From contig CAKONK010000004.1 of the NCBI GenBank assembly GCA_934097085.1, positions 1,907 through 65,906 of the forward strand: a stretch of 64,000 nucleotides of DNA, read 5' to 3'. This stretch comes from an uncultured Bacilli bacterium. Lineage in GTDB: Bacteria; Bacillota_I; Bacilli_A; RF39; UBA660. The notes beneath the pieces were generated by a model. That model worked only from the letters and a program-made list of their open reading frames with translations. It made no database searches and was not told where the DNA came from. Each line of letters starts with the position of its first letter. The first letter of the stretch is position 1. Shown here in pieces: positions 9,135-62,171 of this stretch. The position numbers were made by a program, and so were the translations under genes.

Positions 9135-9286
9135 ATTTATCCTCCTTCCATTTTAAGTATATCAAAATTAATAAAAAATTAAATATTATTTATCAAGTTT
9201 TTATAAAAATGGATACAAAAATATTCAAATAACATCTTTTTTTTATTAACTTTTTAGTGTATACTATTAATATAATAGGTGAGAAA

Positions 9287-10594
9287 ATGAATAAAGAGGT
9301 TAATAACAATTTAAATGAAAATACTACGCAAGAAGATATTGAGTTTTTAACTACAGCAGTTCCCATAATAAAAGACTTAAATGATGAACAAATTGAAATG
9401 CTTACTACTTCACTTCCAGTTATTAAGGATTATACTGAAGAAGAAATAGATGAATTAATAAAAAAGATTCCTTCATTAAGTAGGGATGATATTGCTAAAA
9501 TTAAAGAAGCTTTAAAACCAGTTGAAAAACAATCTAATAAAGAAAAAATTATAGATTTATTAAAGACAAAAAGATCTAAATTATTAATTATTTTAGGTAT
9601 TTTAATAATTATTTTAACAGTAATAAGTGTTGGAACTAGTTTTGCATTATCCTCACAAAATGAAGAGTATGAAAATTATTTTTTTGAAATAGATAAAAAG
9701 GAAAATCCTAATATGGAAATATATAATATTCCTAAAGATAGTCCAAACTTTATAAAAGATTCTAAAGCCTCACAAATTGTAAGTTGTATGCAAAGTAATA
9801 CTCCAATAGAAAAGTTACCAGAAAGTGTTACTTCAGTTATAAATGAAATAAATGATTACTATAATGAATCAATAAATCGTTTTGCATATAAATATGTTGA
9901 TATTTATACGGGTTTTACTGTTAGTTATAATGAAAATCAGCATATATTTACTGCTTCGACAATTAAAGCACCAACAGACATATATATTTATGAAAATGCT
10001 GAAAATGGATCTATCGATTTAGAGGAAAAACTTTTATATACAAAAAAATATTATAATCCTGGTGCTGGTTATATTAAATTAGGCGAGGAAAATACTTATT
10101 ATACTGTAAGAGAACTTGTTAAAAATTCTGCATATTATAGTGATAATGTAGCTCATACTATGCTTATGGATAGATTTAATAAAGATGATATGCTTGCTTT
10201 TTGGAAAGCTAAGGGTACAAATGCTATATTTACAAGACCAACTATATGGGGTGAAACAAGTGCTCATGATGCCGCAATTTATATGAATGAACTTTATAAT
10301 TTTTATGAAAAAGGTAGTGATATAGCAAAAGAACTTATGAGTTATTTTACTGATAATGGAGGTCAGTTTTTAACTCCTCCACAGGGATTGACCTCTGCGA
10401 ATAAAAGTGGCTGTGCTGGCTCTGTAATGCATGATATATCTATAGTTTTTGATGAAAATCCATATATTGTTATTGCTTTATCAAATTTAGGTTGCTTATC
10501 TGCAGGTTCTTATTTTGAGGATGTATCTAATCTTACTTATAAACTTCATAAAGCATATTGGGATTATAAAGTATCCTCTTGTATTAATAAATAA
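9287..10594 (+). CDS. class A beta-lactamase-like serine hydrolase with N-terminal TM anchor and repeat region
   Basis: STIK (SxxK), SDN and KSG motifs in class-A order and spacing; SD aggtgag before ATG 9287. Confidence 0.55.
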   Translation: MNKEVNNNLNENTTQEDIEFLTTAVPIIKDLNDEQIEMLTTSLPVIKDYTEEEIDELIKKIPSLSRDDIAKIKEALKPVEKQSNKEKIIDLLKTKRSKLLIILGILIIILTVISVGTSFALSSQNEEYENYFFEIDKKENPNMEIYNIPKDSPNFIKDSKASQIVSCMQSNTPIEKLPESVTSVINEINDYYNESINRFAYKYVDIYTGFTVSYNENQHIFTASTIKAPTDIYIYENAENGSIDLEEKLLYTKKYYNPGAGYIKLGEENTYYTVRELVKNSAYYSDNVAHTMLMDRFNKDDMLAFWKAKGTNAIFTRPTIWGETSAHDAAIYMNELYNFYEKGSDIAKELMSYFTDNGGQFLTPPQGLTSANKSGCAGSVMHDISIVFDENPYIVIALSNLGCLSAGSYFEDVSNLTYKLHKAYWDYKVSSCINK

Positions 10595-10760
10595 TTATTA
10601 GAAATTAATTAAATTATTAATTAGATTAATGATTTATATATTTGCTTAGAAAAGCCCATATATTTGGGCTTTTTAATTGTTAAAATGTGGTAATTAGTTT
10701 ACATAATTTGACGATTTGCATATTTTATGGTATAATTATTTTGTTATTCAGGGGGAAAGA

Positions 10761-14269: not shown

Positions 14270-16126
14270 ATGAATAGAAGTAAAATAACAAAATCGTTAG
14301 CGGTGTTCGCCTCAGTAATATTGATAATCATTATAGGCGTGGCATCATTTGCATATTTTGGAACATTTAGTGTAAATTTAAATAATAATGTAGCAGTAAA
14401 TATAAATTCATCTAGTCCAGGAAATTCAACATTTATCGCAAATGCAACTCAGTTAAATTTAGTAGTCCCAGCGGCAGATATGAGTTTTACTCAGGCAAAT
14501 AATACAGTAGCTGCAAAAGAAGATACAGCATATTTAGATGTAACACTTACAGGTTCACCAAATTTACTTACAACATGTACATATGATATAGTTTATGAAT
14601 ATAATTCGGGAAGTAATGTATATGGACAGGGTACAACAACAAAAACAAGTGGAGCAGATAAAGAAATAACAATAGAAGTAAATGGAATGAATGGAAATAA
14701 TCATTTTGCAGAAGAAACAAATTTTGATTATGCTAATATTCAAAGTTATTATGATAGTACAAATAAATATTATAAGCTAGTTGAAAATGCCACAATAAAA
14801 AGTTTGGGAACAGAACAATCAGTAAGATGGAAAATAATAGGAAGGTATTATAATTTAGATGTAAGTCAAGCACAATTAAGTGGAAAAAACTTTACTGGTA
14901 AAATATATGCAATAAGTAAAGGATGTTCCTCAGAAGATGGTACAACTGTTAAAAAAGGTTATGAAACAATTGTGGCAAATAATGGTGGCTCAGCAAGTAT
15001 GACAACTCTTACATCAACAGATTTTGCAACGGTTACTACAGAAAATGACAAAGGAATGTATAAAGCAACAGATGACTTAGGAACATCATATTATTTTAGA
15101 GGAGCAGTAGATAATAATTGGGTAAAATATGGTAAAGAAACTGCATGTACTTTTAATGGGTCGAAAGTAGTATATGTAGATTCAAAATTTAATTTTAGAA
15201 ATGTAAAAGATGAAGAAGAATGTGTATCCACAACTTTATGCAGTGCTATGGGTGCATATGCAGTAGGATTAAGTGATGATATGTGTACTTCTGCAGGGGG
15301 AGTACCAATAGGTAAAAAAGGTACATATTCTACCCAGGATATGTATTGGCGAATAATAAGAATCAATGGCGATAATTCAATAAGAATGATATATACAGGA
15401 AACGATGCACCAAGTGCTTCAACAAGTGTAATAATGACGGGTTATAAAACTGTGAGTAGTATTAATAGATTTAATACAAATTATGATAGTGCAGAATATG
15501 TAGGATATATGTATACGATAGGAGAGCAACATGGAACAGGAAAAGATAGTACAATAAAAACAGCATTGGATGATTGGTATGCAAATCATACAGATTTAAA
15601 TAAAACTGGAACAAAAATAACAGATCAAATATATTGTAATGATAGAACAGCATCAACTTCAGATGCAGAATATTCAACAACAAATTACACAACACTAACA
15701 AGTTGGAATTCAACTGGAACTACTTATTATTATGGAGCATATGGAAGAATAGCTAAAGATAATAATCCAATGTTAACCTGTGCAGTGGATAGTGATAGAT
15801 TTACAGTTAATAAAACAAATGGTAAAGGAAATAGTGCATTAACATATCCTGTAGGTTTGATAACAATAGATGAGTTGGAAATGGCAGGAAACAATTGGAG
15901 TGAAAGCAACACGAGCTATTATTTACATACTGGAGCTAACTATTGGGCGGGCTCCCCTTATGGATTCGATAGTAATGGTGCTTATGAGTTCCGTGTGGCT
16001 TATGATGGCATTTTGAGCGACTATTTTGTCGATTACAATTTTGGCGTGCGTGGTGTAGTTTCTCTATCCTCTGATGCTAAGTTACTTGGCAGTGGTACAT
16101 ATGATGATGTGTATGTAGTAAGTTAA
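14270..16126 (+). CDS. DGR target (variable) protein: N-terminal TM anchor, large ectodomain, C-terminal C-type-lectin/DUF1566-like variable region
   Basis: 618 aa; C-terminal 40 aa (YWAGSP...GVRGV) contains the VR matching the downstream TR; higher GC than surroundings. Confidence 0.8.
   Translation: MNRSKITKSLAVFASVILIIIIGVASFAYFGTFSVNLNNNVAVNINSSSPGNSTFIANATQLNLVVPAADMSFTQANNTVAAKEDTAYLDVTLTGSPNLLTTCTYDIVYEYNSGSNVYGQGTTTKTSGADKEITIEVNGMNGNNHFAEETNFDYANIQSYYDSTNKYYKLVENATIKSLGTEQSVRWKIIGRYYNLDVSQAQLSGKNFTGKIYAISKGCSSEDGTTVKKGYETIVANNGGSASMTTLTSTDFATVTTENDKGMYKATDDLGTSYYFRGAVDNNWVKYGKETACTFNGSKVVYVDSKFNFRNVKDEEECVSTTLCSAMGAYAVGLSDDMCTSAGGVPIGKKGTYSTQDMYWRIIRINGDNSIRMIYTGNDAPSASTSVIMTGYKTVSSINRFNTNYDSAEYVGYMYTIGEQHGTGKDSTIKTALDDWYANHTDLNKTGTKITDQIYCNDRTASTSDAEYSTTNYTTLTSWNSTGTTYYYGAYGRIAKDNNPMLTCAVDSDRFTVNKTNGKGNSALTYPVGLITIDELEMAGNNWSESNTSYYLHTGANYWAGSPYGFDSNGAYEFRVAYDGILSDYFVDYNFGVRGVVSLSSDAKLLGSGTYDDVYVVS
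15943..16057 (+). repeat. DGR variable repeat (VR)
   Basis: 115-bp match to TR (17038..17152); 21 differences, all at TR adenines; 3' GC-rich ggcgtgcgtggtgta identical in both. Confidence 0.85.
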
Positions 16127-16164: not shown

Positions 16165-16183
16165 GCACAATCCTCGATTGTGC
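16165..16183 (+). promoter_or_regulatory. GC-rich perfect hairpin downstream of VR (DGR homing-associated stem-loop candidate)
   Basis: gcacaatc-ctc-gattgtgc, 8-bp perfect stem, about 110 bp after VR 3' end. Confidence 0.5.
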
Positions 16184-16247
16184 GTCGGGCGAAAAATAAA
16201 ACTTAGTGTGGTTGTAGTGTTGAAAAAGTAAAACATACTAAAGTTGT

Positions 16248-16266
16248 ACGCCCCTTTATGGGGCGT
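16248..16266 (+). promoter_or_regulatory. second GC-rich hairpin between target gene and Avd
   Basis: acgcccc-tttat-ggggcgt, 7-bp perfect stem. Confidence 0.45.
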
Positions 16267-16295
16267 ATATTCCACGAAGTGGCAGAAAGGAAAGT

Positions 16296-16637
16296 ATGCA
16301 GTCATTTAAATTAATTAATAAAGCAAATGAATTATATGATTATTCATTTACTTATATTTTAAATAAAATGCCAGGTAAGGCTAAGACTTTTAGGATTGCT
16401 TTGGAAAGTGAATTATATGAGTTAATACATAATATCTATAGAGCAAATATAAATTATGAAAGTGAAAAAATAAGAAGTAAATATCAAAAAGAAGCCTTAG
16501 TGAATTTAAGTACACTTGATTTAATAATAGGTCTTGTGGGAAAGCATAAATACATTAAAATGAAAAGAGTACATGGGTTTTTAGGAATACTTAATGATAC
16601 TAAAAAAATGATGTATGGTTGGATTAAAGAAAAATGA
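16296..16637 (+). CDS. avd: DGR accessory variability determinant (Avd), four-helix-bundle family
   Basis: 113 aa basic protein; MPGKAKTFRIALESELYELIHNIYRAN fits the Avd/four-helix-bundle signature; sits between VR and TR. Confidence 0.65.
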   Translation: MQSFKLINKANELYDYSFTYILNKMPGKAKTFRIALESELYELIHNIYRANINYESEKIRSKYQKEALVNLSTLDLIIGLVGKHKYIKMKRVHGFLGILNDTKKMMYGWIKEK

Positions 16638-16933
16638 ATGATGCACTTTCTAAAATATACGATGATTTGAATGAACTTGTAATGAGAAAAATTCCTCATG
16701 ATAAAGAATTATTAAGTACAAGAATTATTAAAGAACATACTAAGATATGCGAATACACTTTTAATATAATAAATTCTAATAAGGATAAAAATTATATGTT
16801 AGAATTTAAAGTTAGTGTGAAATATATATTATTTGTTCTTGAATACTTTGTTAGTAAAAAAATTATTAATGAAGAAGTTTATAAAACTTTTGAAAAAGAA
16901 TACAAAAATTTATATTTTTTAGTAAACCCTTAA
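16634..16933 (+). CDS. second Avd-like four-helix-bundle protein (paralog?)
   Basis: 99 aa; ATGA-overlapped with avd; IPHDKELLSTRIIKEHTKICEYTFNIIN resembles the same family motif. Confidence 0.4.
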   Translation: MNDALSKIYDDLNELVMRKIPHDKELLSTRIIKEHTKICEYTFNIINSNKDKNYMLEFKVSVKYILFVLEYFVSKKIINEEVYKTFEKEYKNLYFLVNP

Positions 16934-17037
16934 TTTTCTAATTAAGGTAGACATATTATTTTTGGGATTTATGATAATGTGTCTACCATAGTTAAAAAGC
17001 TTTGGGAAGTAAATATTGCTGATAGGGATATGCTACT

Positions 17038-17152
17038 TTGGGCGGGCTCCCCTAATGAATTCAATAGTAATAATGCTAATGAGTTCAATGTGAATAATGA
17101 TGGCAATTTGAACAACAATAATGTCAATAACAATAATGGCGTGCGTGGTGTA
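17038..17152 (+). repeat. DGR template repeat (TR)
   Basis: Asn-codon (AAY)-rich; 16 AAY codons; counterpart of VR; the listed ORF 16979..17215 is an artefact of the TR. Confidence 0.85.
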
Positions 17153-17362
17153 TTTTCCTTACAAAATGAGTATTATTACACAAAGTATTTACTTTATGAA
17201 TGTAATTACTCTTAGACAAATTATGGATAGGAAACAAGCATATTCCTTGGCATTATGCCTAAAATGAAAGTGATGAAGAGAATAGTGTTTATTATATAAT
17301 CGCTTCCTAGTAATACTTTTAATAGCTGTCAGCAATATTTATAAAATTAATGAAAGGAAGGG

Positions 17363-18703
17363 ATGTTTGTAACTGAATTTAATATTGATGAGATATTTAG
17401 TTATGAGAGTGTTGTGTGGGCTTATCATAATGTATGTAAAAATTGTCGGTCATCAATAAAAAAAACTAAGTTTACTTATTTTGCAAATTCTAATATATTT
17501 GATATTTATAATAAATTAAGGGATTTAAGTTATAAATTTTCAAAATATACAATCTTTATAATAAAAGATCCAAAATATAGAGTAATTATGAGCGATACAA
17601 TATATGATAAAATAGTTAACTATTTAGTGGCATATAAAGTGTTACTTCCTGTTTTATCACCAACATTAATTGAACAAAATGTTGCAACTAGGAAAGGAAA
17701 GGGTGCTAGTAAAGCTTACTATTTTTTTGAAAAATATGCAAATAAGTTAAAAGAAAATGGAAGTGTTTATGTTTTAAAAATAGATATAAAAAAATATTTT
17801 TATAATATAAATCATTCAGTGTTATTAAAAATGCTGAAAAAATATATAAGTAGTAGTATGTTAAGTAATTTTATTGTAAATATAATTAATCAGACAAATA
17901 ATGATTATGTAAATAATAATATTAATTATTTAAAAAACAAAATAATACAAGATTTAAATTATAAAAGTATTTCTTTAAAAGAAAAAGAAGAATTAATAAA
18001 AAAAATATATGAAATACCATTATATGATAATGGAAAAGGGCTTTCAATTGGAAATGTTTGTTCTCAAATATTAGCGGTATTCTATTTAAATGAATTCGAT
18101 CATTATATGAAAGAAAAAATTAAATGTAGATGTTATTTAAGATACATGGATGATATAGTAATTTTAAGTAATAGTAAATCATTTTTAAAAGATGTATTTT
18201 ATTTAGCAAATGATAAATTAAAGGAATATAAACTAACTATTAATCCAAAAAGTAACATATATAAATTAAATAATTCTTTTACCTTTTTAGGAAGAACTTA
18301 CTATTTAAAAAATAATATACTTTTATATAGATGCAGAAGCACTACATATAAAAGTATAATGAAAAAATTAAATTATTTAAGAAATAATGATTTCAAAAGT
18401 TATTATTTGAGTAAAATAAGTTACAAAGGTTATTTAAATAAAAATATATATTCTTTAAAAGAAGAGTTCGATTTTTTAAGTAATAAATATAATAATGTAA
18501 TAGTTAAAGATTTTATATATGAAGTTGGGTATGTTATTAGAAGTAATGTTAGTGATGATGTTATTAATGAGGTTTTAGATAATATTGGGATAAGTGTTAT
18601 AAATATTTTTAATATTAAAAGATTTATTAAATATTTTGAATCAAATAATATAAAATATATATATTTAGAAAAAACAAAAATTGTTTTTAAGTATGATTGC
18701 TAG
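17363..18703 (+). CDS. DGR reverse transcriptase
   Basis: 446 aa; motif 4 IGNVCSQ (DGR-specific I/LGxxxSQ) and motif 5 YMDD. Confidence 0.85.
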   Translation: MFVTEFNIDEIFSYESVVWAYHNVCKNCRSSIKKTKFTYFANSNIFDIYNKLRDLSYKFSKYTIFIIKDPKYRVIMSDTIYDKIVNYLVAYKVLLPVLSPTLIEQNVATRKGKGASKAYYFFEKYANKLKENGSVYVLKIDIKKYFYNINHSVLLKMLKKYISSSMLSNFIVNIINQTNNDYVNNNINYLKNKIIQDLNYKSISLKEKEELIKKIYEIPLYDNGKGLSIGNVCSQILAVFYLNEFDHYMKEKIKCRCYLRYMDDIVILSNSKSFLKDVFYLANDKLKEYKLTINPKSNIYKLNNSFTFLGRTYYLKNNILLYRCRSTTYKSIMKKLNYLRNNDFKSYYLSKISYKGYLNKNIYSLKEEFDFLSNKYNNVIVKDFIYEVGYVIRSNVSDDVINEVLDNIGISVINIFNIKRFIKYFESNNIKYIYLEKTKIVFKYDC

Positions 18704-18833
18704 GATAAAGCCTAGCTTTTATTATGTAAATGATTTTACATATTTATATGTGTTAATTAATGTCAAATAAATTATAAAAAAAGTGTCAAAAATGTGTAAA
18801 ATTTTAATTTTTTTTAAGAAATTTATTAAAAAA

Positions 18834-18918
18834 AGGAGGAAATCAGAAATTTACCGGTAATAAATATAATGAAGGGAGGAAATCAGAAATTTACCGGTAA
18901 TAAATATAATGAAGGGAG
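18834..18918. repeat. tandem direct repeat, 2 x 40 bp plus partial third
   Basis: ggaggaaatcagaaatttaccggtaataaatataatgaag repeated exactly with period 40 (18841 vs 18881). Confidence 0.7.
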
Positions 18919-19330: not shown

Positions 19331-19363
19331 TAATTATAAAAAATAGAAATGGAGGTAACTAAA

Positions 19364-20197
19364 ATGAATGAATTAGAAAATATTAATGAAACACTATTTG
19401 AAAGTATTAGACATGTAGATGATGAAGGTAATGAATATTGGTATGCAAGGGAACTACAAAAGGTATTACAATACAACAAATGGGAAAACTTTAAAAAAGT
19501 AATTTTAAAGGCAAAATTGTCCTGTAATGCAAGTAGTTGTGAAATTTCAGAACAGTTTCTTGATATCAGGAAACCGATAATAGGTGGTAATGGAAATGTT
19601 CAATATGTATGTGATTATAAACTATCTAGATATGCTTGTTATCTTATTGCTCAAAATGGTGATAGTAGAAAGAAAGTTATAGCTCTTGCTCAAACATATT
19701 TTGCTATTCAAACTAGGAAACAAGAATTATTAGAGAAAGAATATAATAGTTTAACTGAAGATGAAAAAAGATTCTATCAAAGAGATCTAACTAAAAAAGG
19801 AAATTATTCCTTAAATCAAACTGCTAAAAAGGCTGGAGTAAAGAACTTTGATAAATTTCATAATGCTGGGTATAAAGGTTTATATAATGGAGAAACAGCA
19901 AACGATATTGCTAAAAGAAAGGGATTACGGTATAGGGAGGATGTTTTAGATAATATGGGAAGTGATGAACTGATAGCTAATTTATTTAGAATATCTCAAA
20001 CTAATCAAAGACTTAATAATGATAATATTCAAGGTGAAAAAGCAGCTTGCTTAACACATAATAAAATTGGAAAAATTGTTAGAAAAGCTATAAAAGAGGC
20101 TGGTGGTACAATGCCTGAGGATTTACCAACACCAGATAAAAGTTTAAAAGAACTAAAAAAAGAAAATAATAATCTAATAATTAAAAATAGAAAGTGA
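19364..20197 (+). CDS. DNA-damage-inducible protein D (DinD)-like, Bro-N domain protein, copy 1
   Basis: Matches DinD as I recall it (HLSRYACYL..QNGD, GQTYFAIQTR, HMGS.ELAANLFR.TQT, GGTMPE.LPTP); SD ggaggt before ATG 19364. Confidence 0.7.
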   Translation: MNELENINETLFESIRHVDDEGNEYWYARELQKVLQYNKWENFKKVILKAKLSCNASSCEISEQFLDIRKPIIGGNGNVQYVCDYKLSRYACYLIAQNGDSRKKVIALAQTYFAIQTRKQELLEKEYNSLTEDEKRFYQRDLTKKGNYSLNQTAKKAGVKNFDKFHNAGYKGLYNGETANDIAKRKGLRYREDVLDNMGSDELIANLFRISQTNQRLNNDNIQGEKAACLTHNKIGKIVRKAIKEAGGTMPEDLPTPDKSLKELKKENNNLIIKNRK

Positions 20198-20205
20198 GGT
20201 AAAAA

Positions 20206-20560
20206 ATGAACGAATTAGAAAAAATAAATGATACTATATTTGAAAGTATTATACATGTAGATGATGAAGGTAATGAATATTGGTATGCAAGAGAACTGCA
20301 ATATATTTTAGGGTATAATCAGTGGCGAAGTATAAATGATTTAATTAAAAGAGCTAAAGTTGCTTGTAAAGGAAGTGAAAATAATGTTGATTATCATTTT
20401 GCGGTCTACCGCAAAATGATAAATATTGCAAAGGGTGCAACTAGAAATGTGATATAAACTATCCAGATATGCTTGTTATTTAATTGCTTAAAATGGTGAT
20501 AGTAGGAAAAAAGTTTAAAAGAACTAAAAAAAGAAAATAACAATTTAATTATAAAAAATA
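20206..20560 (+). pseudogene. dinD/Bro-N family gene fragment, near-duplicate of 18986..19330
   Basis: 83-aa N-terminal ORF then frame break; same junction sequence. Confidence 0.6.
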
Positions 20561-20578
20561 GAAATGGAGGTAACTAAA

Positions 20579-21418
20579 ATGAATGAATTAGAAAATATTA
20601 ATGAAACACTATTTGAAAGTATTAGACATGTAGATGATGAAGGTAATGAATATTGGTATGCAAGGGAACTACAAAAGGTATTACAATACAACAAATGGGA
20701 AAACTTTAAAAAAGTAATTTTAAAGGCAAAATTGTCCTGTAATGCAAGTAGTTGTGAAATTTCAGAACAGTTTCTTGATATCAGGAAACCGATAATAGGT
20801 GGTAATGGAAATGTTCAATATGTATGTGATTATAAACTATCTAGATATGCTTGTTATCTTATTGCTCAAAATGGTGATAGTAGAAAGAAAGTTATAGCTC
20901 TTGCTCAAACATATTTTGCTATTCAAACTAGGAAACAAGAATTATTAGAGAAAGAATATAATAGTTTAACTGAAGATGAAAAAAGAATATATCAAAGAAA
21001 TCAAGCAAGAAAAGGAAATTATAATTTAAATAAGACAGCTGTTAATAGTGGAGTAAAAGATTTAGCAAGATTTCATAATGCTGGTTATAAAGGCTTATAT
21101 AATGGTGAAACCGCTGATGATATTTTTAAAAGAAAAAAATTAAGATATAGGGAAGATATTTTAGATAATATGGGAAGTGAAGAACTTGCAGCGAATTTAT
21201 TTAGAATAACTCAAACTGAATCTAAATTAAAAAAAGATAATGTAAGTGGTGAAGGTAATGCAATTGATACTCATTATGAGGTTGGTAAAGAAGTTCGTAA
21301 TACAATAGAAAGATTAGGCGGTACTATGCCTGAGGATTTACCAACACCAGATAAAAGTTTAAAAGAAATTGAAAAAGAAAACAATTTAATTATAAAAAAT
21401 AGAAATGGAGGTAACTAA
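20579..21418 (+). CDS. DinD-like Bro-N domain protein, copy 2
   Basis: First ~140 codons DNA-identical to copy 1 across the inspected stretches, C-terminal half diverged. Confidence 0.7.
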   Translation: MNELENINETLFESIRHVDDEGNEYWYARELQKVLQYNKWENFKKVILKAKLSCNASSCEISEQFLDIRKPIIGGNGNVQYVCDYKLSRYACYLIAQNGDSRKKVIALAQTYFAIQTRKQELLEKEYNSLTEDEKRIYQRNQARKGNYNLNKTAVNSGVKDLARFHNAGYKGLYNGETADDIFKRKKLRYREDILDNMGSEELAANLFRITQTESKLKKDNVSGEGNAIDTHYEVGKEVRNTIERLGGTMPEDLPTPDKSLKEIEKENNLIIKNRNGGN

Positions 21419-21419
21419 A

Positions 21420-22247
21420 ATGAATGAATTAGAAAATATTAATGAAACTATATTTGAAAGTATTATACATGTAGATGATGAAGGTAATGAATATTGGTAT
21501 GCAAGGGAACTTCAACAAATACTCGGTTATAAAGAATGGAGGTATTTTTCTGCAGTCATAGAAAAAGCACAAATTGCTTGTTCTCAAAGCAATAACAATG
21601 TTAATTCCCATTTTGGTGTAAACACCAAAATCGTATCTGCTGGTAAAGCTACAAAACCAATAATTGACTATAGATTAAGTAGATATGCCTGCTACTTAAT
21701 TGTCCAAAATGCAAACCCTAAATATGAAGCCGTATCTTTAGGACAGACATATTTTGCTGTACAAACGAGAAAAATGGAATTAACTGAAGAAGAATATGGC
21801 AGATTAACAGAAGATGAAAAAAGACTATATAGGAGAAGGCAAACAAGAGACGGCAATAAAATTTTATATAAAATTGCTAAAGAAAAAGGAGTTAAAAACT
21901 TTGATAAGTTTACTAATGCTGGGTATAAAGGATTATATAATGGAGAAACAGCACACGATATTGCAAAACGAAAAGGTTTAAGATATCGAGAAGATATACT
22001 AGATAATATGGGTAGTGTTGAATTTGGTGCTAATATATTTAGAATAACTCAAACAGAAGCATTACTTGAAAAACAAGAAGAGCCAAATGAAATAATTGCC
22101 ACAAATACTCACTACAAAGTGGGAAAAACAGTTAGAAAAGCAATTGAAGATTTAGGCGGTACAATGCCAGAAGATTTACCAACACCAGATAAAAGTTTAA
22201 AAGAATTAGAGAAAGAAAATAAAAATTTAATAATTAAAAATTATTAA
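21420..22247 (+). CDS. DinD-like Bro-N domain protein, copy 3 (diverged throughout)
   Basis: Same family motifs; start overlaps end of copy 2 via the conserved junction. Confidence 0.7.
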   Translation: MNELENINETIFESIIHVDDEGNEYWYARELQQILGYKEWRYFSAVIEKAQIACSQSNNNVNSHFGVNTKIVSAGKATKPIIDYRLSRYACYLIVQNANPKYEAVSLGQTYFAVQTRKMELTEEEYGRLTEDEKRLYRRRQTRDGNKILYKIAKEKGVKNFDKFTNAGYKGLYNGETAHDIAKRKGLRYREDILDNMGSVEFGANIFRITQTEALLEKQEEPNEIIATNTHYKVGKTVRKAIEDLGGTMPEDLPTPDKSLKELEKENKNLIIKNY

Positions 22248-38140: not shown

Positions 38141-38285
38141 TTTATCACCTATGATATTTTATGCACTAATAAATTTATAATCTATTTAATTAGTTTAGAA
38201 TTCAACTGATAGTTGAGTAAATTCAATGATTAGTTTATTGTTTTTATTAATATCTTAAAGTATGATGAATATGAAAGGAGTAGAA

Positions 38286-38960
38286 ATGAAAAAAATAATT
38301 TATTTAATAATTGGTATTTTAGTAGGAGGATTGCTTTCATATTTTATTTTTAATAAAGTTGAAACTTTAGAAAAACTTCCTAAACCTGAAGTAACTGAAG
38401 GTGAAAGGGGAATGCTTGGCATTGATAAAAATATTAATGAAAAAACTATTGATAAGTATCTAAGAAGAAGTGATTCAGTTTATCGTGATATGAGAATGCT
38501 ATCAGATCCTGGTAATTATGAAGCTATTGGTGGTGATTCAATGCTTTCTGGAACAATAAAAGGTTTTGAAGTAATTCCTTATCCATATTTAACTAAAGTA
38601 AAAGGACTTCCTGAGGCTGTCGGAAAAACATATGATGGAAAAACTTTATTTACAGAAAATGAAGATGGAACTTATTCACCAAATTATAAAGAATCTATGG
38701 AATTTTTAGAAATGTATTTTCCTAAAGATAAAAATATTTTCTTAATGTGTGGTGGAGGCGGTTATGCTGGCATGACAAAGAAGCTTTTAGTATCACTTGG
38801 ATGGGATGAAAATAAGATTTATGATATAGGTGGATATTGGTTCTATGATGGTGATAATAATGTTCAAATTAAAAAAGAAGAAAATGGCAAAACTATTTAT
38901 GAATTTTGGAAAGTAACTTATCATGAAATAAATTTCGATAACTTTACGGAGATTAAATAG
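38286..38960 (+). CDS. membrane-anchored rhodanese-like domain protein
   Basis: TM helix then C-terminal FLMCGGGGYAGMTKKLLVSLGW...GGYWFY, which resembles a rhodanese active-site loop. Confidence 0.4.
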   Translation: MKKIIYLIIGILVGGLLSYFIFNKVETLEKLPKPEVTEGERGMLGIDKNINEKTIDKYLRRSDSVYRDMRMLSDPGNYEAIGGDSMLSGTIKGFEVIPYPYLTKVKGLPEAVGKTYDGKTLFTENEDGTYSPNYKESMEFLEMYFPKDKNIFLMCGGGGYAGMTKKLLVSLGWDENKIYDIGGYWFYDGDNNVQIKKEENGKTIYEFWKVTYHEINFDNFTEIK

Positions 38961-39403
38961 TGAAAAAAATATTGATAATAATATTTTTTTTACTGGTATT
39001 ATGTGGTTGCCAAAAAGAAGAGAAAATAGAAAAGTTTTATTTGAATGATGATTATTACGGTTTATCAGGATTAAAAGAAGTTAAGTCAGATGAATTAAAA
39101 GATGATGATAGTTTTTTACTCTTTACATATAACTATTATTGCTCATTAGCGATACCATGTGATGAGATATTTAAAAGTTTTTCAGAAAATAATAATGTGG
39201 AAATATTATCTATGTCAATTGATGAATTTAAAAAAACTTCATATTATAAAACAGTAAAATATGCTCCTTCAGTATTAATAATTAAGAATGGTAAAATTGT
39301 GACTTTCCTTGATGCAGAAAAAAATAGTGATATTGAAAAATATCAGGATGTTGAAAAATTTACTGAATGGATAAGTAAATATATTTATTTAGCAAAAGAT
39401 TAG
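38960..39403 (+). CDS. lipoprotein, possible thioredoxin-like fold
   Basis: Lipobox LVLCGC; 147 aa. Confidence 0.35.
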   Translation: MKKILIIIFFLLVLCGCQKEEKIEKFYLNDDYYGLSGLKEVKSDELKDDDSFLLFTYNYYCSLAIPCDEIFKSFSENNNVEILSMSIDEFKKTSYYKTVKYAPSVLIIKNGKIVTFLDAEKNSDIEKYQDVEKFTEWISKYIYLAKD

Positions 39404-39501
39404 AATTAACTTTCTAATTTTTTTTGACAATACTTATTGAAAATAAAAATAATTGTTGTTATAATTGATATGATAGATGATAGTATCAAAGGAGGATAAA
39501 A

Positions 39502-40272
39502 ATGGGAAATATTAGTGCATTTATTAAAAAAACTATAGCAAATAAAAATACAGTTACTATTTTGCTAGTACTTGCGGGGGTTGTAGTTTTGTGGTTCTTT
39601 TATAATATGAGGGTTAAAGAAGCAACAACGCCTATTAAGGTACCTTATGCAAAAGAAGAACTTCATGCTACTGATGAAATAACAGAGGATAAAATAGGAA
39701 TGGTTGAAGTTAATAGTAAACTATTAAAAACTGCAGATATAATTCAAAATCAAGGTTCATTAATAGGATATTATGTTACAACTGGAACCTCTATTCCAAA
39801 GGGTGGACTATTTTATAAAGCTCAAGTAGTAACTAAAGCAGAACTTCCTAATTCAGTTTTTGATGATATTCCTGATAAACATACAATTTATAGTATGTCA
39901 GTTAATAATCATACAACATTTGGAAATTCAATATATCCTGGTGATAAAATTGACCTTTATTTAAAGGCTACAGATGATTCAGGAAAAATCATGTTTGGTA
40001 AGTTTATTGAAAGTATTTCTGTTTTAGGTGTTCGTGATAGTAGTGGTAAAGATGTTTTTGGTTCAACTGAAACAAGAACACCTGCTGAACTTTTATTTGC
40101 GGTACCAAATGATATGTATGAACTTTTAATGAAAGCTGGTTATGTATCTGGAATTACTCTTGTACCAGTTCCTAGAAATAAACATTATACTGATTTAAAT
40201 GCTGATACAGTTACAATAGAATACTTAAAGAATTTCATTTTAGCAAAGACTGCTACATTACCAACAGAATAA
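39502..40272 (+). CDS. Flp pilus assembly protein CpaB/RcpC-like (SAF domain)
   Basis: 256 aa; N-terminal TM; precedes the Tad ATPase. Confidence 0.5.
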   Translation: MGNISAFIKKTIANKNTVTILLVLAGVVVLWFFYNMRVKEATTPIKVPYAKEELHATDEITEDKIGMVEVNSKLLKTADIIQNQGSLIGYYVTTGTSIPKGGLFYKAQVVTKAELPNSVFDDIPDKHTIYSMSVNNHTTFGNSIYPGDKIDLYLKATDDSGKIMFGKFIESISVLGVRDSSGKDVFGSTETRTPAELLFAVPNDMYELLMKAGYVSGITLVPVPRNKHYTDLNADTVTIEYLKNFILAKTATLPTE

Positions 40273-40288
40273 AAAGGAGTGATATTTT

Positions 40289-41407
40289 GTGAAAGATACA
40301 ATATTTTCACAGTTAGATTTTGGCCCTATTACAGAGTTTTTAAATGATGATAATATTACCGATATTTCATATTCAAATGGAGGAAATGTTTGGTTAAAAA
40401 CTCTAGATAAGGGTATATACATGGTCAATAGACCGGAAATAAATAATGCTTTAATGGAAAAACTTGCTTTCCAATGTTCAAATGTTATGGGAACAACATT
40501 TAATATGGCACACCCATTTTTGGATGCTGAAAGTACAGAACTTCGTCTTAACTTCGTTCATGAAAGTATTGCCACTAATGGAATAGCATGTGTTATAAGA
40601 AAAACACCGGCAAAAATAAGATTAAATAAAAATAAATTATTAAGTGAAAAATATATTACAGAAAATGTTCATAATTTTTTAATATCATGTGTAAAAGCGC
40701 ATTGTAATATACTAATTTCTGGAGAAACTGGTTCAGGTAAAACCGAACTTGCTAAATATCTTGCTTCGAATACTGAAGAAAATGAAAAAATTATTACAAT
40801 TGAGGATACACTTGAACTTCACCTTGATAGAATATTTCCTCATAGAGATATTGTTGCAATGAAAACTAATAATATTGCATCATATTCTGATGTATTGGTT
40901 ACTTGTATGAGACAGAACCCCAAATGGATATTACTTTCCGAAGTTCGTTCTGCAGAAGCAGTTACCGCTGTTCGTAACTCAATATCATCAGGACATAACA
41001 TTATATCAACAATTCACTCAGATAGTGCAAGCCACATTCCAATGCGTATGTATTCACTACTTGAAAGTAACCAAGATATTGAACAATTTTTGAAATCTAT
41101 TCATAGATATGTACAAATTGGTATTCATGTTAAGGGTTACATGAGTGCAGAACTTCAAAGATTTCAGCGTGAAATAGTTGAGGTTGTTGAATTTTATGTT
41201 GACGAAAATAATGAAGCAAAGTCTAATAAGATTTTTTCTAAAAGCTTAGATGGAACAATTAGTTATAATATGCCAACTAAATATTTAAAAGATTATTTTG
41301 GAGCACAAGGAAAAATTTTGGATGAATCTTTATTTAGTGAGGTAAATAATAGTGTTCCAAAAGAAACAAATAATATAAATCAAAATGTTGAATTAGATTC
41401 ATTATAG
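40289..41407 (+). CDS. Tad/type II-IV secretion ATPase (CpaF/TadA family)
   Basis: Walker A GETGSGKTEL, Asp and His boxes. Confidence 0.8.
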   Translation: MKDTIFSQLDFGPITEFLNDDNITDISYSNGGNVWLKTLDKGIYMVNRPEINNALMEKLAFQCSNVMGTTFNMAHPFLDAESTELRLNFVHESIATNGIACVIRKTPAKIRLNKNKLLSEKYITENVHNFLISCVKAHCNILISGETGSGKTELAKYLASNTEENEKIITIEDTLELHLDRIFPHRDIVAMKTNNIASYSDVLVTCMRQNPKWILLSEVRSAEAVTAVRNSISSGHNIISTIHSDSASHIPMRMYSLLESNQDIEQFLKSIHRYVQIGIHVKGYMSAELQRFQREIVEVVEFYVDENNEAKSNKIFSKSLDGTISYNMPTKYLKDYFGAQGKILDESLFSEVNNSVPKETNNINQNVELDSL

Positions 41408-41419
41408 AAAGGAGTTTTT

Positions 41420-42316
41420 ATGATAGAATTTATTATATTACTATTTTTAGGAATTTTTATAATACTATATCGTAAAAATCCTGGAGAAAATGTATATAAA
41501 TTTTTTATTACGACAGCATCTAATGCATATGAAAAATATGCACCTTATTCTTTTAAAACAGTTAGAGCTAAAGCAAAAGAATTGGGACAAGAATTTACAA
41601 CTAGGCAGTATATTTCTCAAATAGTTATTTTTGCGGGATTTGCGGGTGTTGTTGCATATCTTTACTTTTATAATATTTTACTATCAATTTTATATGCAAC
41701 ATTAGCTATTTCAGTAATTCCATATTTAGCATATTTAAGATGTCAAAGAATTTATTCAGAGTTTATTTTTGAACAAATTGAAACATATACTACAAATGTT
41801 ATAATGGAATTTAATACTACGCAAAGTTTTGTTAAATCCCTTGAGGGTGTTAGAGATTCTGGTATTATTGAGGATCCTGTCCTTACTGATTTAAGAAAGA
41901 TGATTGATATGTCATATCAAAATGGAACAATTGATGAATCGATTGATTATTTTAATAAAAAATATCCATATTATATGGTCAAAAACATGCATCAATTATT
42001 CTTTCAAATTACAAAAGAGGGTGCTAGAGATGCAGGCCAAAGTTTGGAAAATATGGCAATGGATATCGATGCTCTTGTTGAGGGCGTTTATAGAGATCAA
42101 ATGGATAGAAAACAATTCCATTCTAAATTTATTAGATTTGGACTTGCACTATTTTTCTTAATTTTGGCAGTTCAGTATATGTATGGTTCTGAAAGATATA
42201 TAGAACTTTTGGATTTATGGTACATACAAATAATCTTACATGCAATTATAATAGTTAACTCTTTATTCTTATTAAAGGGAGAAAAATATTACAATGAAGA
42301 TGTGGGGGTAGAATAG
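41420..42316 (+). CDS. TadB-like (T2SS F-domain) membrane protein
   Basis: 298 aa polytopic; follows the ATPase. Confidence 0.5.
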   Translation: MIEFIILLFLGIFIILYRKNPGENVYKFFITTASNAYEKYAPYSFKTVRAKAKELGQEFTTRQYISQIVIFAGFAGVVAYLYFYNILLSILYATLAISVIPYLAYLRCQRIYSEFIFEQIETYTTNVIMEFNTTQSFVKSLEGVRDSGIIEDPVLTDLRKMIDMSYQNGTIDESIDYFNKKYPYYMVKNMHQLFFQITKEGARDAGQSLENMAMDIDALVEGVYRDQMDRKQFHSKFIRFGLALFFLILAVQYMYGSERYIELLDLWYIQIILHAIIIVNSLFLLKGEKYYNEDVGVE

Positions 42317-42317
42317 T

Positions 42318-43109
42318 ATGTATTATGAAATAGTTATTTTAGGAGTTATTATTTACGGAATAATGTTTGCTACTGGACAAATTAGTTTTAGTAAATTAAT
42401 TAGTGATAACGAAGCCATTTTTAGAAAATTAAAGGAAAGTGATTGGGACTTCTATGTTAAAGCAAGGTATGGAAATGCCGTAAACCCTGATATTTTATTT
42501 AATCAAAGAGTAAGAAATGGTTTAATTACTTTAATACTTGCATTTTTATGGTCAATTACAGGTGGATTTTCCACAATAAAAATAGTTTTAGCCTGTGCTG
42601 CAGGGTATGGTGTATTCAAGTTAACATATATTAATTTACAGTCTTATTATAGAAAACATATTTCTCAAATTGATTCACTTTTACCACATTATTTAAAAAG
42701 TATTGAAATATTAATTCAACACTATACAGTTCCTGTGGCGATAGGTAAATCAATTACTGATGCACCAGAAATATTTAAACCAGGATTACAAGATTTAATT
42801 AATGCTATTAATTCAGGTGATGATTCAATTCAACCATATATGGAGTTTGCTAAAACATATCCAGTAAGAGATAGTATGAGAATGATGAGACTTTTATATA
42901 GATTAAGTTTAGGAAGACAAGAAAGAAAACAAGAACAATTACTAACTTTTTCTAAGTCAATTTCATCACTTCAACAAAAGGCAAGAGAGACAAGATATAA
43001 AAATAGACTTGATAAAATGGAAAGTATGACAATGAAGATGCTTATAACCACGGGTGTTGGTGTTATGATTGTTTTAGTACTAGCCGTTTTACAAATGATT
43101 AATTTATAA
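42318..43109 (+). CDS. TadC-like (T2SS F-domain) membrane protein
   Basis: 263 aa; same placement. Confidence 0.45.
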   Translation: MYYEIVILGVIIYGIMFATGQISFSKLISDNEAIFRKLKESDWDFYVKARYGNAVNPDILFNQRVRNGLITLILAFLWSITGGFSTIKIVLACAAGYGVFKLTYINLQSYYRKHISQIDSLLPHYLKSIEILIQHYTVPVAIGKSITDAPEIFKPGLQDLINAINSGDDSIQPYMEFAKTYPVRDSMRMMRLLYRLSLGRQERKQEQLLTFSKSISSLQQKARETRYKNRLDKMESMTMKMLITTGVGVMIVLVLAVLQMINL

Positions 43110-43177
43110 TGTAAATTATATTGATAAAAATAAAAAATATTGTTATAATAAAAATATAAAGTAAAGGAGGTAAGCAA

Positions 43178-43444
43178 ATGAAGGAAGCTACAGGTGAATT
43201 AAGTACAACAGTTATTACTGTAGTTGCTATTGCAGCTGTTTTAACATTATTTACTGTTTTCCTATATCCATCTTTAAAAGGTGCTATTTTAGCAAGAGTA
43301 CATTGTTCTCAAGCTGTTGCGTGTGAAGGTACTGGTAAAGATAGAAAATGTAAATTTTATGAGGATGATGGGACTACTTTAAACAATACGCCAATAATTT
43401 GTCCTGAACAGGATGACGAAGCCAATAATAAACAAAAAAAATAA
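43178..43444 (+). CDS. Flp/Tad-type prepilin-like protein 1
   Basis: 88 aa; MKEATG then ELSTTVITVVAIAAV (class III signal, G-E cleavage-like motif), strong SD. Confidence 0.45.
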   Translation: MKEATGELSTTVITVVAIAAVLTLFTVFLYPSLKGAILARVHCSQAVACEGTGKDRKCKFYEDDGTTLNNTPIICPEQDDEANNKQKK

Positions 43445-43476
43445 AGATAAAACTTATTAAAAAGGAGTAAGAAAGT

Positions 43477-43698
43477 ATGAAAAATGCTACTGGGGAGCTA
43501 TCAAATCTAATAGTTGTTGTAATTTGTGTGGCTATTCTAGTAGCCTTTTTTTACTTTACTATTTGGCCAATGATTAAAAATAATTATATTATGCAAACAA
43601 GTTGTGAAAAGGCTAAATGTTCAACTGAGCCTGATAGTGATGGTTTGGTGAAGTGTTATTTAGATGGTAAAGAGTTTATGTGTAATTATAAGGGGTAG
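43477..43698 (+). CDS. Flp/Tad-type prepilin-like protein 2
   Basis: 73 aa; MKNATG then ELSNLIVVVICVAILVAFF; 4 Cys in C-terminal half. Confidence 0.45.
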   Translation: MKNATGELSNLIVVVICVAILVAFFYFTIWPMIKNNYIMQTSCEKAKCSTEPDSDGLVKCYLDGKEFMCNYKG

Positions 43699-43701
43699 AA
43701 G

Positions 43702-44220
43702 ATGAAAGAAGGAATAGGTGGAATACAATTATTTTTAATTGTTGTTATATTGGTTTTAACTTTTGCGGGAATTATGTCACTTACGATTAATCAATCCAAT
43801 GCATTTGCAATCAAAGATCAACTTGTATCAATTCTAGAAACTGCTGGAGGACTTGATCTATCTTCAGAATGTGTAAGTGGAAATTGTAATACAAGTATAA
43901 AGGATCAGGAAACTTTACAAAAAATTATTGATTCTTTGGATAGCAACTCATATAGACAAACTGGAGATTGTGAAAAAATAGCGGAAAATTTAAGTAGTAA
44001 AGCTGTTGTAGCTGGTTATACCCGAACTGGAGAAAAAACTTTAAGTGGTAAAAAAGATTCGTTTTGTATTGCCAAAATACCAGCTCAAAAAACTAATAGT
44101 GAAGATACTTTAAAGGGATATTATTATCAAATTTATGTTTTTTATCAACTTGATATTCCAATTATGAATGCTTTATTTAATTTTAGAGCAATAGGAGAAA
44201 CAAAATTATTATATAAATAG
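43702..44220 (+). CDS. prepilin-like/minor pilin candidate
   Basis: 172 aa; MKEGIGG then IQLFLIVVILVLTFAG. Confidence 0.35.
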   Translation: MKEGIGGIQLFLIVVILVLTFAGIMSLTINQSNAFAIKDQLVSILETAGGLDLSSECVSGNCNTSIKDQETLQKIIDSLDSNSYRQTGDCEKIAENLSSKAVVAGYTRTGEKTLSGKKDSFCIAKIPAQKTNSEDTLKGYYYQIYVFYQLDIPIMNALFNFRAIGETKLLYK

Positions 44221-44229
44221 GAGAAAAGA

Positions 44230-45228
44230 ATGAATGTAATTATTTCAAATAAAAATGAAAGTATTTTAATGAGTTTGGGAATTGATGTAATTAAAACATT
44301 AAATGGTGTTTTTACTGTGGATGATTTAGCTGCAACATTTAAAAACTTTTATTATAATAGAATGATACTTGATATTACAGCAATTGAGGATTATGAAAAC
44401 ATTAATACCATGCAAAATCTATCTGTTGCTTTTGATATGTCTAAAGTAATTATTTTGTTGGATGATTCAAATGTTGTATCTTCACCTATGTATTTATCAA
44501 GTTTAGTATCTATGGGCATTTACAATTTTACTAAAAATGCTGATGCAATTCCGTTTTTAATTGATAATCCAAATTCATATAAGGATGTTGCAAATTATCA
44601 AGATTTAAATATGCGTATGGAGGAACCTAAGCTTAATGATAATGCAAAAACAAATAATGTTGGATTTATAGGTCAAAGAATTATTGGAATTAAAAATGTT
44701 ACAGAACATGCTGGAGCAACAACTCTTACATATTTATTAAAAAAACACTTAGAAAAGAATTATAAAGTTAAAGCATGTGAACTTGATAAAGGTGATTTAA
44801 TATATTTTAATGATAATAATCTAGATATTAATGTTAATAGTTTTGAATTAAATAAGTATTTAAGTAATTTAAATAATAATGAAACTGAAGTTATATTAAT
44901 AGATATGAATAATGCTGATGTTGAAAGTTATTTTACGGATGTTTTATATTTAATTGAACCTGGGCTTATTCAACTTAATAAATTAATAAAGTTAGATAGG
45001 CAAGCATTTAGTAAATTAAAAGGGAAAAAGATTATTTTAAATAGAAGTGTACTTTCACAAAGCGATGTAACTGATTTTGAAAAAGAAAGTGGAAGTAAAG
45101 TATTTTATAATATGCCAAATGTTGATGACAAAATTGATGATAATATTGTAATAAAAAAACTTCTTAAGGAGCTAGGGTTTACAAGAATTGATGATCATGA
45201 ATCAAAAGGATTTAGTATATTTAGATAA
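44230..45228 (+). CDS. hypothetical protein, possibly TadZ/CpaE-like pilus localisation protein
   Basis: 332 aa; weak degenerate P-loop region; locus context. Confidence 0.3.
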   Translation: MNVIISNKNESILMSLGIDVIKTLNGVFTVDDLAATFKNFYYNRMILDITAIEDYENINTMQNLSVAFDMSKVIILLDDSNVVSSPMYLSSLVSMGIYNFTKNADAIPFLIDNPNSYKDVANYQDLNMRMEEPKLNDNAKTNNVGFIGQRIIGIKNVTEHAGATTLTYLLKKHLEKNYKVKACELDKGDLIYFNDNNLDINVNSFELNKYLSNLNNNETEVILIDMNNADVESYFTDVLYLIEPGLIQLNKLIKLDRQAFSKLKGKKIILNRSVLSQSDVTDFEKESGSKVFYNMPNVDDKIDDNIVIKKLLKELGFTRIDDHESKGFSIFR

Positions 45229-57913: not shown

Positions 57914-57932
57914 TTATTGGAGGAGGAAAATT

Positions 57933-58910: not shown

Positions 58911-58920
58911 GAGGATTTTT

Positions 58921-62170: not shown

Positions 62171-62171
62171 A

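Follow-up and report, generated by a model that had tools for sequence, protein, structure and literature searches.

The 64,000-nucleotide stretch of DNA analysed here (the window), from contig CAKONK010000004.1 of an uncultured Bacilli bacterium, carries a diversity-generating retroelement (DGR) whose target gene (14270..16126, forward strand, from the list of open reading frames (ORFs) and its translation) encodes a protein of 618 amino acids (aa). We put the probability at roughly 0.78 that this protein is exported, acts as a binding protein at the cell surface or outside the cell and is the only target of a chromosomal DGR, its likely role being re-tunable adhesion or ligand capture. The target ORF (14270-16126, +) opens with an ATG and has a plausible ribosome-binding site upstream (GGGATAGGAG). 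A near-identical protein, P0001, which differs at 2 residues, occurs with the same cassette on 4 gut-metagenome contigs (tblastn of P0001 loci), and a search of the window for a second copy of the target gene found none.

Adenine-directed variation at the tip

The initial annotation, made from the sequence alone, had described the gene as a DGR target with a diversified tip, and the comparison of the variable region (VR; residues 558-598, 15943..16062, +) with the template repeat (TR; 17038..17157, +) bears this out. The two are 82% identical; over 120 nt there are 22 mismatches, 21 of them at TR adenines and all of these in codon positions 1 or 2. This adenine-restricted pattern is far beyond chance, and it recurs in the related cassettes of two other loci, L026 and L009. 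The TR, which lies inside a spurious 78-aa ORF (16979-17215), contains 40 adenines in 120 nt, and its 21 variable codons (mostly AAY) allow ~3 × 10^22 possible peptides with no reachable stop. The annotated length of the diversified part, about 40 residues, is correct; its placement at the very end of the protein is not, as residues 558-598 are followed by 20 invariant C-terminal residues. The sole mismatch away from adenine (T to G at 16058) falls in the GC-rich 3′ end of the VR (16043..16062, +; GGCGTGCGTGGTGTAGTTTC), where the VR has G and the TR has T, and is also present in L026. This 3′ end appears to resemble an initiation of mutagenic homing (IMH) element, with the exception at 16058 being what would be expected of an IMH/IMH* pair.

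The comparison of strains indicates that the variation is ongoing. Between the window and locus L010, all 23 VR differences (23/23) are at TR-A positions, and the segment from Avd to the reverse transcriptase (RT) differs at 7 of 2577 nt. We sampled VR diversity in the 120 closest database homologues. The cassette-type scaffold (WAGSP...GVRGV) is found in 76 of the 120, with 61 distinct VR peptides and an entropy of 2.11 bits at residues 564-591 versus 0.26 elsewhere. A further 39 have a fixed-tip scaffold (WTGTP...AARGV), in which just 3 variants occur and the entropy is 0.046 bits; L027, the single inspected locus of this type, is without the cassette. Together these comparisons strongly indicate natural activity of the DGR and a dependence of hypervariability on the cassette. 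Non-diversified homologues, bearing on the search for VR-less ones that the initial annotation had proposed, exist both as paralogues and as fixed-tip alleles.

The DGR cassette

The genes are arranged in the order target, Avd, ORF99, TR and RT. The RT (446 aa; 17363..18703, +; RVT_1 E = 7.8 × 10^−20) shows IGNVCSQ and YMDD in its translation, corresponding to the IGxxxSQ and YxDD motifs of the DGR type, and a terminator-like site is located at its end (18699-18716). The Avd-like accessory gene (113 aa; 16296..16637, +) was recognized from Pfam bAvd (E = 3.3 × 10^−7, 31.2 bits, cut-off 40) and NCBIfam DivGenRetAVD (E = 3.6 × 10^−9, 36.9 bits, cut-off 80), two matches with significant E-values whose scores do not reach the curated cut-offs. 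Its stop codon is overlapped by 4 nt by the start of a conserved 99-aa ORF (16634..16933, +), which is present in every gene-listed cassette copy (L001-L003, L026). This ORF has only a faint Avd match (E = 0.03, NCBIfam) and no BLASTP similarity to the neighbouring Avd; it could encode another accessory protein of the DGR.

Two perfect 8-bp GC-rich hairpins (8/8-nt inverted repeats without assigned strand, at 16165-16183 and 16247-16267) occupy the interval between the target stop and Avd; read on the minus strand, the one at 16165-16183 has a terminator-like score. Both could serve as terminators, or as hairpin/cruciform elements like those that assist homing of the BPP-1 DGR. Just past the RT terminator, at 18827-18906, a 40-nt unit (TAAAAAAAGGAGGAAATCAGAAATTTACCGGTAATAAATA) stands in tandem at 93% identity, with GGAGG in each copy. 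A likeness of the cassette to crAssphage LMMB (a 168-nt RT stretch at 71%) was discarded as uninformative.

An exported protein with a Sec-type N-terminus

The basic n-region and the sole hydrophobic helix of the protein (residues 1-29; 14270..14356, +) were defined from hydropathy, an AlphaFold2 (AF2) model and a motif shared by the paralogues. The N-terminus MNRSKITKS is followed by hydrophobic residues 10-28, with a mean Kyte-Doolittle value of 2.82 compared with 0.99 for the runner-up segment anywhere in the protein, and the AF2 model places a helix at residues 3-29. The single helix of the initial annotation is therefore present; its 'Lys-rich' start is so only modestly (2 Lys, 1 Arg). 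In all paralogues the hydrophobic stretch closes with A-[SA]-[FY]-A-[YF]-[FL]-G, and Y29 and G31 are invariant across an alignment of 150 homologues (37-82% identity).

In the target this motif reads ASFA↓YFG, and its S25 and A27 satisfy the −3/−1 rule, the established rule for signal peptidase I sites, with possible cleavage after A27 (arrow). The sequence thus fits a possible signal peptidase I cleavage site, and the 'signal-anchor' of the initial annotation is not established. The protein has no lipobox Cys, LPXTG/LPxT motif or second transmembrane (TM) segment, and its C-terminus reads ...GSGTYDDVYVVS. This leaves export by a Sec-type N-terminal signal well supported and stable membrane anchoring no more than possible; the protein may be cleaved and then released or wall-associated.

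The motif also resembles the SipW-cognate class (GTYAYFSD). The SipW-type model TIGR04088 has no match in the target N-terminus, and Peptidase_M73 has none in the target protein in the Pfam scan; P0153, a distant relative in the C-terminal module described below, matches both (TIGR04088 23.5 bits, cut-off 19; Peptidase_M73 4.5 × 10^−7). A SipW/TasA assignment of the target was dropped: the motif is similar, the TIGR04088 model does not match and TasA is outside the top 50 Foldseek matches. Type IV pilin identity, an idea raised by the N_methyl domains of 2 relatives and a Tad-like locus at a distance of 22 kb, was likewise rejected: the target has no N_methyl match, the pre-helix residues are not conserved as G/A/S among paralogues, and the modelled topology (helix, disordered linker, sandwich) is unlike the α1-β fold of pilins. 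Three paralogues (P0198, P0129 and P0429) have weak NCBIfam matches to NF045999, 'MAG1140 family protein' (best E = 4.8 × 10^−4, below cut-off), that cover the signal helix and the first ~35 residues beyond it and may reflect a shared Mollicutes-type export or anchor motif.

Architecture of the ectodomain

The target protein has no family match in Pfam (E ≤ 10), NCBIfam (E ≤ 1) or PHROGs, and a profile search with the 150-sequence alignment against PDB sequences returned chance matches only (ribonucleotide reductase, E ~ 0.8). As the initial annotation had described, the protein is rich in Thr, Ser, Asn, Gly and Tyr and has several Cys: past residue 40 the composition is T 12.1, S 9.5, G 9.0, N 8.7 and Y 8.1% (~47% summed), and the whole protein contains 8 Cys, the first at residue 103. 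The AF2 model, built with the 150 homologues (mean predicted local distance difference test (pLDDT) 80.9, predicted template-modelling score (pTM) 0.80), consists of the helix at 3-29, a low-confidence linker at 30-41, a nine-strand β-sandwich at 44-223 and a mixed α/β domain at 230-618.

The C-terminal binding module (residues 230-618; 14957..16123, +), which ends in the VR, was delimited from the matches of representative proteins, DUF6273 and Foldseek. Exhaustive searching without a profile gave 3818 cluster representatives at E ≤ 10^−3 and 494 at E ≤ 10^−30, and most of the 150 best representatives cover residues 354-618 or 230-618. Residues 354-618 (often 230-618) recur in very many proteins of 250 to 4900 aa, and are repeated within large ones (14 stretches in a 3528-aa protein, 24 in a 4905-aa protein). 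In a Pfam scan of diverse relatives, DUF6273 was found in 12 of 89 (E ≤ 0.001), a pilin-type N_methyl domain in 2 of 89 and a camelysin/SipW-type N-terminus in one (P0153). Relative P0142 scores 39.4 bits against DUF6273, above the 23.5-bit gathering threshold. The matches of the relatives always fall at profile positions ~129-171 of 172, which correspond to the VR region, and the TR-encoded peptide matches positions 132-171 of 172, weakly (E = 0.022, 15 bits).

Foldseek comparison with BFVD returned a DUF6273 model, A0A8S5MNV4, with a probability of 1.00 and a target-normalised template-modelling score (TMt) of 0.55, but E = 3 × 10^−3, and two more DUF6273 proteins with probabilities of 0.41-0.97. 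A separate model of residues 228-618 (pLDDT 76.7) matched nothing in the PDB at E < 1; lectin domains of CD23, SP-A, MBP-C and the mannose receptor recur non-significantly. DUF6273 is a described C-lectin-like VR domain of DGRs, with the VR at its C-terminal end (PMC10743442, PMC11792537). The relatives above the DUF6273 threshold, the BFVD matches and this published role together point to a VR domain that is DUF6273-like and presumably of C-lectin-type fold. The initial proposal of a CLec/DUF1566-type VR is thus not upheld as to DUF1566. The binding domain spans hundreds of residues, not 40.

The β-sandwich module (residues 44-223; 14399..14938, +; nine strands in the AF2 model with pLDDT mostly 60-90) is the part of the target that varies most between paralogues (column entropy 1.1-2.4 bits). 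It has no Pfam or PDB sequence match. HMMER handles residues 1-~292 as a separable stretch, which is confined to a narrower set of proteins. A Foldseek search of the PDB with the full model gave only weak, generic sandwich matches (FimG, Bd1399, Epf adhesin and AP2 μ2), of which the donor-strand pilin FimG has a probability of 0.97 and a TMt of 0.39. The β-sandwich is family-specific and may be a stalk or spacer. The juxtamembrane segment was also considered as an exceptionally conserved 'donor strand'; this was rejected, as its conservation across paralogues is only moderately above that of the rest of the N-terminal module.

An insert with 3 Cys (C318, C324 and C339) at residues ~296-351 (15155..15322, +) was recognized from low pLDDT (<55) and from its occupancy in only 5-21% of a non-redundant paralogue set. 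It sits inside the conserved motif pair YYFRG...NWVKYG / YWRIIRINGD, with C293 just N-terminal to it, is missing from P0185 and P0198, and is lineage-specific. The ~520-aa unassigned ectodomain of the initial annotation, with its possible novel scaffold, therefore shrinks: residues ~230-618 belong to a widespread module, and only the β-sandwich (44-223) and this Cys-containing insert are without family assignment.

A multi-copy family with and without the cassette

The target belongs to a family with at least 4-6 copies per genome, one of which is diversified. Paralogue loci number four in MGYG-HGUT-04242, five (full-length) in one Hadza metagenome-assembled genome (MAG) and three in CAG:472, all of these counts being lower bounds, and within the loci fetched RT and Avd adjoin just one paralogue per genome. 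The possibility that other paralogues are additional VRs (trans-targets) of the same TR was rejected because their mismatches to the TR are not A-specific. One non-DGR paralogue, identical copies of which occur on 37 contigs, lies between the EF-P gene and the L21/Prp/L27/Obg genes. Homologues are abundant in public metagenome assemblies, with 6470 scored matches in one search.

The cassette is polymorphic between close relatives. In the sister species represented by L026, a target of 76% identity is located between Amidoligase_2/TyrRS and IleRS genes together with Avd, ORF99, TR and RT, and a rve-family insertion sequence (IS) element lies upstream. The closely related L027 shares these flanks (97-99% identity) as well as the gene but has no cassette; the indel comprises 2.7 kb (L026 11771-14480), and the target gene itself is just 82-97% identical. 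The L027 tip has 54 mismatches to the TR, only 26 of them at A, and so is not a frozen VR. In both loci a gene with a CdiA_C toxin domain (242 aa) is found just downstream of IleRS (L026 18073-18801, L027 15372-16100). Across species, the chromosomal sites of the cassette differ (SDF/Bro-N in the window, TyrRS/IleRS in L026), and in the Hadza MAG the copy next to the DGR has 58% identity to the window target, with a copy of 71% identity lacking a DGR. Which family member the cassette is linked to thus differs from species to species.

Strains differ in a mosaic fashion in the body of the target gene. Relative to L010, the window has 0 differences in nt 1-300 of the gene, 50 in nt 481-840 and 15 in nt 1381-1440; the patches are 14-25% divergent, versus 0.3% in the cassette. 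Outside the VR, clustered-substitution patches at window positions 14750-15110 and 15650-15710, and also at 14426-14515, set apart otherwise near-identical alleles in the comparisons of the window with L010 and with L001-L003. No donor sequences were found among the fetched loci, and the patches suggest recombination or gene conversion within the paralogous family.

Host and genomic neighbourhood

Homologous loci come from human-gut MAGs labelled 'uncultured Mycoplasma sp. MGYG-HGUT-04242', 'Mycoplasma sp. CAG:472', 'uncultured Bacilli bacterium' (Hadza) and 'uncultured Anaeroplasmataceae'; the MGYG-HGUT-04242 locus is 93% identical to the window in the target and 99.8% in the RT. The host is an uncultured low-GC, Mycoplasma-related human-gut Bacilli of a 'Mycoplasma sp. 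CAG:472'-like lineage. The window, with a GC content of 21-32%, encodes an SDF symporter, a TPR/Sel1 protein, a β-lactamase-family protein, GH25, ABC/FtsX transporters, BipA, NusG, LemA, UvrA, a pseudouridine synthase and a glycosyltransferase.

The window also contains a Tad/Flp-like gene cluster for a pilus or secretion system (38262-45228, +), which is surprising in a Mycoplasma-related lineage. It includes a CpaB-like protein (39502-40272, +; TIGR03177 E = 5 × 10^−7), a TadA/CpaF/VirB11-type ATPase (40289-41407, +; T2SSE 7 × 10^−29), a 147-aa thioredoxin/TrbB-like ORF and four family-less ORFs after the ATPase; the 298-aa and 263-aa ORFs are possible TadB/C candidates.

Proposed mechanism and its weak points

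The protein would consist of a Sec-type signal (anchor or cleaved), a ~180-aa variable β-sandwich stalk and a ~390-aa DUF6273-like ligand-binding module. Following the established DGR paradigm, from which we infer both the path from TR through cDNA to VR and the binding surface, the TR would be transcribed, and RT and Avd (perhaps with the 99-aa protein) would make a cDNA, misincorporating opposite adenines. This mutagenized cDNA would replace the VR and re-randomize 21 codons (mostly AAY) on the binding face, with the invariant scaffold residues and the last 20 residues retained. The 21 variable residues would form the binding surface of a C-lectin-type domain, for which host or dietary glycans, partner cells and phage-related surfaces are candidate ligands. 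The tips of the other family copies and of the cassette-free alleles are fixed. The protein most likely serves in adhesion or ligand capture, with a specificity that can be re-tuned rapidly. This role matches the general picture of cellular DGR targets, most of which combine an N-terminal TM segment or signal peptide with binding domains (Roux et al. 2021, PMC8144416).

Several observations weigh against this account. Model confidence is low (pLDDT below 50) at residues 30-41 and over most of the insert, the target protein itself lacks a Pfam match even at E ≤ 10 (the DUF6273 gathering threshold being 23.5 bits), and neither AF2 model matches a solved C-lectin DGR target in the Foldseek search of the PDB. 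The N-terminal helix fits an uncleaved signal-anchor as well as a cleavable signal peptide. Finally, an identical VR was found in three samples of one study, so that diversification may be episodic or the samples related.

Alternative explanations

An ordinary phage DGR, in which a prophage receptor-binding or tail-fibre protein is varied for tropism switching, is extremely unlikely. The initial annotation had named a phage receptor-binding fold in a prophage neighbourhood as the finding that would speak for it, and the first half of this has some counterpart. Locus L025 (IMG/VR UViG_3300006143_000018) is a genuine prophage with tape measure, tail, tail-fibre and integrase genes; right after the tail-fibre genes (9233-10732) it encodes a 499-aa protein whose C-terminal ~240 aa are 32% identical to target residues 358-617, and no RT was found in this 20-kb locus. 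The best structural matches of the target are likewise the DUF6273 phage models in BFVD, and directly downstream of the RT stand four to five tandem genes with Bro-N domains, which are often phage-associated (19349-22247, +), two of which (19349-20197 and 20564-21418) have identical N-terminal ~140 aa. The neighbourhood is clearly not that of a prophage, however. The Bro-N array is the sole phage-flavoured feature of the window, and it does not belong to the DGR unit, as the L026 locus has the cassette, flanked by Amidoligase_2/TyrRS and IleRS, but no such array. Screening of the ORFs of at least 100 aa at 117-57158 (the first ~4 kb covered only through the L001 gene list, and six ORFs at 57170-62780 unscreened) revealed no gene for a capsid, tail, terminase or integrase. 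The paralogues lie among ribosomal-protein genes, and the target carries a Sec-type N-terminal signal, which virion proteins lack. Prophage origin was rejected because, beside housekeeping and transport neighbours over the surrounding ~60 kb, there is no PHROG match, no match of either protein half by tblastn in 50,697 phage records and no close relative in IMG/VR. The initial view of a host-encoded exported target, not a phage protein, is thus upheld.

Two other proposals accept a host protein and differ on what it does. It could be a cleaved secreted subunit, processed at ASFA↓YFG as a dedicated, SipW-like site, whose β-sandwich polymerizes by TasA- or pilin-like donor-strand exchange into a fibre with diversified lectin heads. 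This is unlikely, although the cleavage motif with its invariant Y29 and G31, the bona fide SipW-type/camelysin N-terminus of P0153, the residues 30-41 left unplaced in the monomer model, the weak match to FimG and the N_methyl N-termini of 2/89 relatives all fit it. Against it are the failure of TIGR04088 and Peptidase_M73 to match the window protein, the position of TasA outside the top 50 Foldseek matches, the only moderate conservation of the juxtamembrane segment relative to the rest of the N-terminal module and the fact that no signal-peptidase gene was seen near any copy. Alternatively, the protein could be a dominant surface antigen or phage receptor whose tip is varied to escape immunoglobulin A (IgA) or phage, like antigenic variation in Mycoplasma. 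A multi-copy surface family in a Mycoplasma-related gut lineage and the mosaic gene body would suit such evasion, and a virus-host arms race has been raised for cellular targets by Roux et al. (PMC8144416). We nevertheless consider it very unlikely: the varied positions lie in the canonical ligand-binding region of a DUF6273/C-lectin-type domain, the AAY codons favour binding-type residues (Y, S, D, G and N) as is standard for binding-site diversification, and the cassette-free alleles are stable and common (39/120 top matches), which argues against strong pressure to vary an epitope. A re-tunable binding protein remains our preferred reading.

A broader proposal, which we regard as doubtful, would place this binding protein in a two-tier system of surface variation. 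In the first tier, the scaffolds of the multigene family (at least 4-6 copies) would be reshuffled by recombination or gene conversion, to which the mosaic patches in otherwise near-identical alleles would point. In the second, the portable 2.7-kb cassette, attached to differing family members and loci across species and present or absent in sister strains, would turn the fixed binder that it joins into a hypermutable one. The conserved ASFA↓YFG motif may, in addition, mark these proteins as building blocks of a surface fibre not described before.

Comparison with known DGR targets

The prototype DGR target is Mtd of Bordetella phage BPP-1, a trimeric tail-fibre tip. The system described here has in common with it a VR of ~40 residues at the C-terminus, a TR rich in AAY codons, a 3′ end that is GC-rich and IMH-like, and a cassette with Avd and RT; however, the target has no detectable sequence or Foldseek similarity to Mtd, and the order here is target-Avd-ORF99-TR-RT, with an extra accessory ORF. 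TvpA of Treponema denticola, which belongs to the FGE/sulfatase-modifying C-lectin subtype, and LdtA of Legionella are both lipoproteins. Like them, the target is chromosomal or host-encoded, exported and presumed to be a surface-displayed ligand binder with a C-terminal C-lectin-type VR, whereas it lacks a lipobox Cys (the first Cys is residue 103) and is of the DUF6273 type. The structure of Mtd is available (PDB 1YU0, cited in PMC11792537).

A further close comparison is with DUF6273 (PF19789) DGR targets of gut phages, which include the 'tentaclins' and the Mtd-like targets of Faecalibacterium prophages (PMC10743442, PMC11792537). The VR at the C-terminal end of a DUF6273-type domain and the scaffold motifs W..SP ... 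G.RGV/G.RP. are common to both. Unlike these targets, the protein is host-chromosomal with a Sec-type N-terminus and is not a virion protein, its module is enlarged (about 260-390 aa versus a 172-position profile), and another N-terminal module stands in place of Ig/Fn3 arrays. It has the organisation of the 'membrane-bound' clusters of cellular DGR targets (PMC8144416), which begin with a TM segment or signal peptide, continue with an extracellular region for binding and carry the VR at the C-terminus.

Paul et al. reportedly described, in 2017, DGRs of reduced-genome episymbionts of the candidate phyla radiation (CPR) and DPANN. The likeness is that of a chromosomal DGR in a lineage related to orders that have been described as reduced-genome and host- or partner-dependent; such reduced genomes and dependence have been discussed for RF39, RFN20 and ML615J-28 (PMC10868615). 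The phylum is a different one, and unlike the protein described here CPR targets are usually without recognizable TM or signal domains (PMC8144416). Mycoplasma and Tenericutes are not mentioned by Roux et al. 2021 (PMC8144416), nor are Mycoplasma, Tenericutes, Mollicutes, RF39 or Bacilli in a 2024 survey (PMC11661182), and we found nothing specific in the literature on DGRs in RF39 or Mollicutes.

Significance

The target is typical of bacterial DGR targets and does not represent a new kind of system, and the current understanding of DGRs is not overturned by it. The main yield is the presence/absence polymorphism of the cassette, with hypervariable cassette-type and static fixed-tip alleles, the multi-copy family and the occurrence of a DUF6273-like module in abundant bacterial exported proteins. 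The DUF6273 C-lectin-like module is thereby extended from phage tail proteins to a large bacterial exported family, and the unannotated N-terminal β-sandwich module could receive a family definition. The window documents a cellular, non-phage DGR in an uncultured Mycoplasma-related lineage of the human gut, and the sister loci offer a rare natural experiment, in which one gene at one chromosomal site either has the retroelement beside it or lacks it. Hypervariability of the tip is confined to the cassette-type alleles, which provides a handle on what diversification buys the cell, with strain persistence or host association in cohort metagenomes as example read-outs.

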